From a virus, in the IMG/VR virus record IMGVR_UViG_3300029258_005404: a stretch of 64,000 bases of DNA, one strand, 5' to 3'. A model generated the notes under the pieces. The model searched no databases. It saw only the letters and a list, made by a program, of their open reading frames with translations, and had not been told where the DNA came from. Below, piece by piece: positions 36,926-37,453 of this stretch. Position numbers and translations under genes: made by a program. Every line of letters starts with the position of its first letter. The first letter of the stretch is position 1.

Positions 36926-36997
36926 GCACAACAACCGTATGTTGAAATGGGATAGAGGCATGCGGTTGTACCACATCAACATACTATCCCGTTGTGA
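36926..36997 (+). repeat. attC-like site 1
   Basis: GCACAAC ... GTTGTGA core ends, GTATGTTGA/TCAACATAC arms, 72 nt. Confidence 0.6.
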
Positions 36998-37447
36998 GCA
37001 ATACCGCCCGGCTCTTAAAATTATAGGGCGGCCATTTATAACGAAAGGAATTTGCCATGAACTTCGGGCAAGCCATCGAGTCGATGAAGCGCGGCGAGAA
37101 AGTCTGCCGTGCTGGTTGGAATGGAAAAGGTATGTTTATCGTTCTTATGGGAGCGTTGAGCCTGCCGCCGTACAATACACAGGGTACGGAGCGCAAGGTT
37201 AATGACCGCACTGCAAAGTGGATTGGCGAAGATAAGCCGCTGGACAGCCAGCCGTATTTCGCCATGTACACCGCGCAGCAGAAGTGGCAGCCGGGATGGC
37301 TTGCTTCTCAGGCCGATATGTTAGCCGATGATTGGGAAGTGGCCGCCTGAACACTATGGTAGCCGGGCGGTACAGCTCACAACACCCGTATGGATGCCAT
37401 GCGGTCAAAAAATATGTGGGCGTACCGCACAGCACCATACTATCACG
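36992..37447 (+). mobile_element. Integron-type gene cassette carrying a Tad2-like gene
   Basis: Single ORF between two attC-like sites; cassette start (36991-37013) is complementary to 37361-37383 at 21/23 nt; GC-rich relative to flanks. Confidence 0.6.
37057..37350 (+). CDS. tad2: DUF2829 / Thoeris anti-defence 2 (Tad2)-like protein
   Basis: MNFGQAIESMKRGEKVCRAGWNGKGMFI...PYFAMYTAQ...PGWLASQADMLADDW. Confidence 0.8.
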   Translation: MNFGQAIESMKRGEKVCRAGWNGKGMFIVLMGALSLPPYNTQGTERKVNDRTAKWIGEDKPLDSQPYFAMYTAQQKWQPGWLASQADMLADDWEVAA

Positions 37448-37453
37448 TTGTAA
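37377..37453 (+). repeat. attC-like site 2
   Basis: TCACAAC ... GTTGTAA; arms GTATGG[A]TGC / GCACCATAC with one extrahelical base; shares CACAACAMCCGTATG and CATGCGGT with site 1. Confidence 0.65.

Follow-up and report, generated by a model that had tools for sequence, protein, structure and literature searches.

A Tad2-type counter-defence gene in a probable integron-like cassette insert of a phage genome

A two-cassette insert in a phage genome

In this study we analyzed 64,000 nucleotides of viral DNA (IMG/VR record IMGVR_UViG_3300029258_005404; the whole stretch is called the window below), which carry a Tad2-like gene between two imperfect hairpins, E1 and E2. The explanation that best covers all of our results, and that we regard as probable, is that positions 36661-37447 are foreign DNA inserted as two single-gene, integron-like cassettes, that their hairpin sites belong to a non-classical family, that such cassettes are moved by a tyrosine recombinase, and that one of the two carries a counter-defence gene. 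Integron cassettes store bacterial anti-phage defence genes, and DUF2829/Tad2 proteins sequester the glycocyclic ADP-ribose (gcADPR) signals of the Thoeris system. Seen against this background, the locus shows the other side of the defence-gene integrons: a gene of a proven counter-defence type that appears to travel as a hairpin-bounded cassette between unrelated phages.

The foreign island is 787 bp long and has a GC content of 0.494, compared with 0.325 and 0.259 in its two flanks; across 37000-37400 the value is 0.51-0.57, against 0.2-0.35 on both sides. A 6-bp direct repeat, GTTGTA, stands at both ends of the island. Its left copy (36660-36665, plus strand), as read from the sequence, is a bare R' box that lacks an upstream hairpin, and its right copy (37447-37452, plus strand) marks the point from which the DNA is AT-rich phage DNA, with the GC content falling to 0.26. 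An earlier reading of this DNA from the sequence alone (hereafter the sequence-only reading) had described one hairpin-bounded unit at 36926-37453. The open reading frame (ORF), the GC-rich patch and the two homologous hairpins were all found where that reading had placed them, and the hairpin-bounded cassette stands; the extent had to be revised, as the true insert spans 36661-37447 and includes a second cassette upstream.

Cassette 1 (36661-36991, plus strand) consists of a leader, a ribosome-binding site (RBS), an ORF of 63 amino acids (36713-36904) with no match among the Pfam families, a short stem (36890-36915) and the hairpin E1. Because the bare box at 36660 is followed by the leader, the RBS and the 63-amino-acid ORF, and then by E1, we take E1 as the 3' site of this cassette. 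The stretch 36660-36702 is 86% identical to a leader that lies behind a hairpin in another phage contig (L127). Cassette 2 (36992-37447, plus strand) consists of a leader (36992-37056), the Tad2-like ORF, a short stem (37343-37370) and E2 up to the G of its R' box. A search of the region 34000-40000 against Rfam gave no family match.

The interrupted recipient gene

The insert breaks the 3' end of a phage gene at 36304-36711 (plus strand), which as now read encodes 135 amino acids, with the last 17 codons (36661-36711) derived from the insert. When 36661-37447 was deleted in silico, the gene regained a stop codon and read ...GDYEV-L-stop, giving a protein of 120 amino acids. The recipient gene had no relatives in IMG/VR and one diverged relative in all, the protein P0122 of a related and syntenic phage contig of 149 kb (L135), which has 124 amino acids and 66% identity. 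The alignment with P0122 reaches only to about 36633, and P0122 ends a few codons past GAAGGGGTTG; the stop codon regained upon deletion falls near this end. These base-level junctions suggest that the entry was site-specific and took place at the GTT box. The expected form of the site prior to insertion would be GAAGTG/TTGTAAGATTC, with the slash marking the junction.

The Tad2-like gene

The gene of cassette 2 (37057-37350, plus strand) encodes 97 amino acids and was assigned to Tad2 by the sequence-only reading. This identity is well borne out: the protein matches Pfam PF11195 with an E-value of 1.8e-26 and 92.9 bits, compared with a gathering cut-off of 25, over profile positions 1-72 of 73. 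It also has full-length matches to solved Tad2 proteins, namely SptTad2 (8wjd, 2.7e-20), HgmTad2/AcrIIA7 (8kbi, 1.6e-17) and SPO1 Gp34.65 (8sme, 1e-10), and shares with them a size of about 90-100 amino acids. Judging from this homology, the product of cassette 2 should bind and sequester the Thoeris signal nucleotides and thereby blunt Thoeris defence.

There are 3327 relatives of the protein at E-values of at most 1e-10. A megablast search with 36000-38500 against 50,697 phage records gave no match, and a blastn search for distant matches recovered the ORF body only, in KVP40-like Vibrio phages; there the gene lies behind asiA and hairpins are absent. What sets the present gene apart is its setting, since its close relatives in the KVP40-like Vibrio phages, in the contig L010 and in many metagenomic phages are resident genes without hairpins. 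As so many close relatives lack hairpins, the Tad2-type gene is an ordinary resident in most phages and takes the form of a cassette in a few.

The hairpins E1 and E2 belong to a family of sites

Hairpin E1 (36924-36998, plus strand) reads, from its 5' end, R'' CACAAC, spacer AACC, L'' GTATGTTGA, loop, L' TCAACATAC, spacer TATCCC and R' GTTGTG. Hairpin E2 (37375-37454, plus strand) shares the ends of E1, CACAAC-AnCC-GTATG and CATAC-TATCnC-GTTGT, while the centres of the two differ; the start-to-start spacing is 451-456 bp. Each half of this common pattern occurs only at these two places in the window, compared with a chance expectation of 0.1-0.2. The spacers are asymmetric, with 4 nt on one side and 6 nt on the other. 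E1 has no bulge within the first 9 bp of its L stem, whereas E2 and some of its relatives are bulged in L''; in E2 the sequence reads as a bulged A in the inner stem, which agrees with the extrahelical base noted earlier.

A covariance model of the site family (R1), built from seven copies, gave 76.7 bits (E = 1.9e-18) for E1 and 89.8 bits (E = 3.6e-22) for E2. It found members in about 15 viral contigs and in two Fibrobacterota chromosomes (G141 and G277). A complete 48.9-kb phage with terminal repeats (G001) has approximately seven co-oriented copies among small ORFs, and arrays of two to nine copies are present in other phage-like contigs. Large chromosomal arrays were not found when R1 was run over 151 Fibrobacterota genomes, and a pattern scan of genome contigs gave a single true match, in a phage-like contig of a Chitinivibrionales metagenome-assembled genome. 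We also noticed a 123-nt family site at 4566-4689 of the contig L177 (minus strand), which scored 29.7 bits in the genome search and was missed by cmsearch with the filters off; the site is plain in the sequence.

In an alignment of 23 members we could follow three helices, with 91.5% of cells paired and compensatory changes, on both sides, in 11 of the 18 pairs. The covariation score was 0.298, compared with 0.117 in shuffled alignments (none of 500 reached the observed value) and with at most 0.067 when the partners were slid against each other. Three AAC/GTT pairs are invariant in all 23 members, and the outermost box pair is unpaired in 15 of them.

The cargo of the family arrays includes a C5 DNA methylase, YopX and DUF551, and most of the ORFs have no assigned family. 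Directly upstream of family hairpins lie a C5 methylase (L115, 4520-5290) and an N6/N4 methylase fused to an SNF2 helicase (L142, 7881-10241); methylases therefore recur as cassette cargo.

Pairing of boxes along the arrays and the proposed movement

The sequence-only reading had pointed out that the start of the Tad2 cassette is complementary to the sequence after the stop codon at 21 of 23 nt, and had taken this as the start of a cassette completing its own 3' hairpin. The complementarity is real (36991-37013 against 37361-37383) and is part of a 47-nt inverted repeat in which 74% of the positions are complementary. The same relation holds along the arrays. In 23 cassettes, the box after one hairpin and the box before the next match at a mean of 6.0 of 11 positions beyond the triplet, compared with 4.14 of 11 for a box and its own adjacent hairpin and 4.21 (sd 0.28) for permuted pairs; none of 20,000 permutations reached 6.0. 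Four cassettes have boxes that pair perfectly at 9 of 9 positions, and since two of these have deviant boxes beginning with GTTAG, the pairing is unlikely to be due to shared ancestry of a common consensus.

Both cassettes of the insert conform to this rule. The start of cassette 1 pairs with the flank before the AAC of E1 at 8 of 11 positions beyond the box (11 of 14 in all), and for cassette 2 the count is 9 of 11, with a perfect 9-nt R box (R' after E1 against R'' of E2, 9/9). When folded with DNA parameters, E2 together with the start of its own cassette forms one long hairpin of -36.7 kcal/mol, compared with -19.5 kcal/mol for E2 in the phage flank. Thus the pairing with the next site, the fold energy and the perfect box of the Tad2 cassette all agree with the proposal that a cassette start completes the base of its own 3' hairpin. 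Box pairing and fold, taken together with the insert junctions and with the recurrence of the cassette elsewhere (see below), provide good evidence for circular forms of the cassettes and for their recombination at the GTT box.

Each cassette of the insert thus consists of a leader starting with TTGT, an ORF and an imperfect hairpin site of 75-80 nt. The site starts with R'' (ending in CACAAC) and a spacer of 4 nt, continues with the L'' stem, the loop and the L' stem, and closes with a spacer of 6 nt and G. In the mechanism that we propose, a tyrosine recombinase of the IntI/Xer group would act on the folded single strand, and the strands would be exchanged within the GTT box, after its G and before its TT. 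Cassettes would leave as circles whose first bases complete the base of their own hairpin, so that the expected circle junctions are the E2 core joined to TTGTGAGC or to TTGTACAAC. For re-entry, such circles would use either a different hairpin or a bare GTT site. In the case of the window, a circle of two cassettes from a more GC-rich phage lineage would have entered GTTGTA at the 3' end of the gene 36304-36711.

The same cassette in other contexts

Cassette 2 is 90% identical over 456 nt to positions 3933-4387 of the contig L008, an unrelated, more GC-rich phage-like contig (L008/L009). The shared stretch begins at (C)GTTGTGAGC and reaches as far as the hairpin's L' arm; in L008 a different hairpin of 130 nt precedes the Tad2 cassette and an HNH-like ORF follows it. 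This ORF (L008, 4426-4611) is short, stands directly after the cassette and, by eye, appears to be truncated.

A third context (L174/L175) was recovered by scanning metagenomes for the cassette start. Here the same 60-nt leader, again from GTTGTGAGC, precedes a diverged Tad2 gene (L174, 275-640), and there is no 3' hairpin, which has been lost in both contigs. The sharing stops at GAACACTATGG, which is overlapped by the ATG of the next ORF, and the modules have therefore also been rearranged at points other than the GTT box. One further metagenome match (L173) was set aside, as it shares only the 21-nt query and the DNA around it is unrelated. The earlier view of a mobile cassette is thus sustained by two further phage contexts, in both of which the shared DNA begins at GTTGTGAGC.

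Are the sites canonical attC sites?

The sequence-only reading had regarded the hairpins as integron attC sites and the arrangement as similar to clusters of attC sites lacking integron-integrases (CALINs). In this explanation the hairpins are true attC sites, the cassettes are moved by the classical IntI of a host, and the pair of sites is an ordinary CALIN; we consider it unlikely, even though it accounts for much of what is seen. IntI tolerates very diverse attC sequences. The layout of the sites is attC-like, with R''-L''...L'-R', conserved AAC/GTT pairs, an asymmetric unpaired central spacer, a bulged base in E2 and some of its relatives, an ORF upstream of each site and pairing of boxes along the array. 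As in integron cassettes and CALINs (Qi et al. 2023, PMC9892861; Cury et al. 2016, PMC4889954), every unit holds a single promoter-poor gene, the R' box that follows a site is part of the cassette behind it, and the sites form co-oriented arrays, which in phages also occur without a recombinase. CALINs in virulent phages, some with orphan DNA methylases, which are also found as cargo here, have already been published, and IntI1 recombined five of the six phage attC sites tested (PMC9892861). A bare GTT site as the point of entry recalls the insertions outside att sites that integrases are reported to drive (bioRxiv 10.1101/2022.09.11.507474). Both of the Fibrobacterota genomes with family sites also encode a true IntI above the cut-off of the TIGR02249 integron-integrase model.

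To compare the sites with canonical ones, we used a surrogate attC covariance model (R2) made from six attC sites employed in recombination assays (supplement of PMC9892861). R2 recovered independent real attC sites: the third TJE1 attC, which was outside of the training set, scored 37.9 bits, six attC sites of the Shewanella M16-3 integron and CALIN 17.8-25.9 bits, and the attC adjoining the true IntI of G141 26.1 bits. E1, by contrast, gave a partial match of 11.7 bits over the R box only, and there was no match for E2 or for the four family sites in G141. Since R2 is small and of low sensitivity, recovering about one third of the Shewanella sites (by a rough count of about 18 annotated cassettes), this negative is weak evidence against attC identity.

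Other differences point in the same direction. The tested attC sites have TTCAAG/CTTAA-like L boxes, whereas the present family has GTATG/CATAC, spacers of 4 and 6 nt, and a conserved loop and two conserved flanks. In G141 the true IntI adjoins a canonical attC of the TTGAAC/GTTAA type, while the family sites adjoin a different enzyme. The assignment to the IntI integron is therefore not upheld, as the family was found in phage contigs and beside an insertion-less recombinase, and not beside IntI. E1 and E2 are two sites 451 bp apart with no integrase in 64 kb, and whether they count as a CALIN hinges on attC identity. Altogether the sequence-only reading holds in part: the element behaves as an integron cassette does, but its sites do not match canonical attC sites and membership in the classical attC/IntI system is not established.

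A candidate recombinase

A possible recombinase for the family came from the Fibrobacterota genome G141. On a contig of 517 kb, near a multihaem cytochrome gene, a tyrosine recombinase of 322 amino acids is followed by four co-oriented family sites within 480 nt, after which the contig ends. These sites read CACAAC-AAyC-GCATGG...CCATGC-TAsAC-GTTGTG and score 18.6-30.4 bits with R1. With 184 bits on TIGR02249 the enzyme stays below the cut-off of 265, and the XerA model gives it 176 bits. It shares 27% identity with the true IntI encoded in G141, and about 38 amino acids are missing from it at the place of the IntI-specific insertion. A survey of tyrosine recombinases notes that members of the integron-like subgroup do not all conserve this insertion (PMC8138268). 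In the genome G277, of the same order, a recombinase fragment at a contig end is 57% identical to the G141 enzyme over residues 180-307 and likewise below the TIGR02249 cut-off, and two further family sites lie downstream of it on the same strand. In both genomes the recombinase is co-oriented with the array and without the IntI-specific insertion; the integrase of classical integrons is divergent from its array.

As a separate observation, G141 holds two cassette systems, one of a true IntI with canonical attC (L176, 7691-8635 and 10121-10223) and one of the insertion-less IntI-like recombinase with the co-oriented family array (L141, 3780-6336). A scan for close relatives of the G141 recombinase found no viral homologues.

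Points against a recombinase-driven cassette insert

Several results weigh against our explanation. The first concern the enzyme: no recombinase was found in the window (PF00589, 81 ORFs of at least 90 amino acids), which agrees with the earlier remark that it contains no IntI, and no tyrosine recombinase was found in the 16 viral records with sites, four of which are 95-100% complete. The link between recombinase and sites rests on two related bacterial genomes, and in the neighborhoods of 29 other homologues of the G141 recombinase there are no R1-type sites within 1.5 kb. Because of both limits, the link between the recombinase and the sites, as judged from gene neighborhoods, may be taken as a lead and not as proof.

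The second group concerns the junctions. Empty-site alleles in related phages had been named as a check of the sequence-only reading; none was found for the same phage, since the insert is present in all nine contigs with an identical recipient gene. L135, the sole relative, is itself too diverged (66% at the amino acid level) for a base-exact empty site. On the right side, identity with L008 stops 4 nt short of the G, and an overall identity of 90% is too low for the crossover to be placed from this. Finally, the flanks of the hairpins are conserved too, and different ORFs have common leaders.

A regulatory role of the hairpins

This last point leads to the explanation in which the hairpins are composite regulatory units, each a terminator or processing hairpin with a promoter, similar to the promoter early stem-loops (PeSLs) of T4-type phages, and the genes between them are shuffled by homologous recombination with no dedicated recombinase. 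By eye, the conserved flank upstream of the hairpins contains a short stem, with the previous ORF's stop codon located in its loop, and the flank downstream contains a leader with a second short stem and the motif TTGAAAnTTATAGG, followed by the RBS and ATG. Together with the hairpin and a promoter-like site in the leader these form a composite unit; the near-identical leaders on different ORFs (the above stretch shared with L127) and the position of the arrays among small ORFs of phages without a recombinase would also be accounted for. PeSLs (Arbiol 2010, PMC2839356; Comeau 2014, PMC4122927) likewise combine a stem-loop, a promoter-like leader and an RBS between small accessory genes, and are tied to gene gain, loss and replacement; they are described as mediating module exchange, with mini-circles proposed as intermediates (PMC4122927).

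The details nevertheless make this explanation improbable. PeSLs have short terminator stems and their exchange is thought to be homologous, whereas here we see imperfect hairpins of 75-130 nt with invariant AAC/GTT. If the stems had a structural or regulatory function, one would expect each of them to pair with the 3' box directly beside it; what we see is that this box pairs with the following hairpin, and that the outer box pairs are broken. The recipient phage had only the 6-bp GTTGTA and no copy of the unit at the insertion point, and for this reason homologous recombination cannot explain the entry. There is no U-run behind the stems. The promoter-like sequence TTGTGA-18 nt-TAAAAT in the leader of cassette 2 (36992-37021, plus strand), in which the R' box doubles as the -35 element, matches the consensus at 9 of 12 positions, but such sites are at chance level in this region, with 3 found and 2.6 expected. 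A T7-type RNA polymerase that could read a conserved TATAGG motif had no match in five phage records, a result that carries no information, as the control search was equally silent. The conserved flanks and common leaders, which distinguish these cassettes from classical ones, nevertheless suggest an added regulatory role. Regulation and recombination are compatible, and the sites of the mobile cassettes may also serve expression.

That the hairpins are chance inverted repeats or the ends of another element, such as an insertion sequence of the IS200/IS605 type, whose ends are likewise marked by subterminal imperfect hairpins in direct orientation, or a miniature inverted-repeat transposable element, is highly improbable given at least 23 family members with covarying stems, long co-oriented arrays in which each gene has one site, boxes of 9 bp whose pairing runs along the array, the invariant AAC/GTT pairs, the absence of a transposase and the 0.1-0.2 half-patterns expected by chance per window.

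Implications

That Tad2 proteins act as sponges and that integron cassettes carry defence genes has been published. What is new here is Tad2 as cassette cargo. New as well would be that an unrelated, large and AT-rich phage took up two cassettes at a bare GTT site, as deduced from the junctions, and a site family distinct from canonical attC together with a candidate insertion-less IntI-like recombinase.

More tentatively, we suggest that a distinct integron-like system, with its own hairpin sites and an insertion-less IntI-related recombinase, could move counter-defence and accessory genes as circles among phages whose hosts are of the Fibrobacterota/Bacteroidota type and drop cassettes into bare GTT sites of unrelated phages, the window being one such event with Tad2. 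If such a system works, it would constitute a second, simpler branch of single-strand hairpin recombination and a general route for the exchange of counter-defence genes among phages, and the small ORFs without assigned function in the same arrays would be good candidates for new anti-defence functions.

Other features of the window

The 425-amino-acid protein encoded at 9996-11273 has CarboxypepD_reg domains as well as a Fibrobacter succinogenes major paralogous domain (PF09603, 1.5e-20), a hint that the host belongs to the Fibrobacterota/Bacteroidota group, which would fit the occurrence of the hairpin family. A second GC-rich patch, at 35500-35810 (GC content of 0.45 in AT-rich surroundings), has no convincing ORF and could be another foreign insert. 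ARAGORN listed, in this order, a tRNA with a CUA anticodon labelled Pyl (32644-32718), tRNA-Glu (13206-13279), tRNA-Met (62969-63045) and a tmRNA-like gene (12386-12793).

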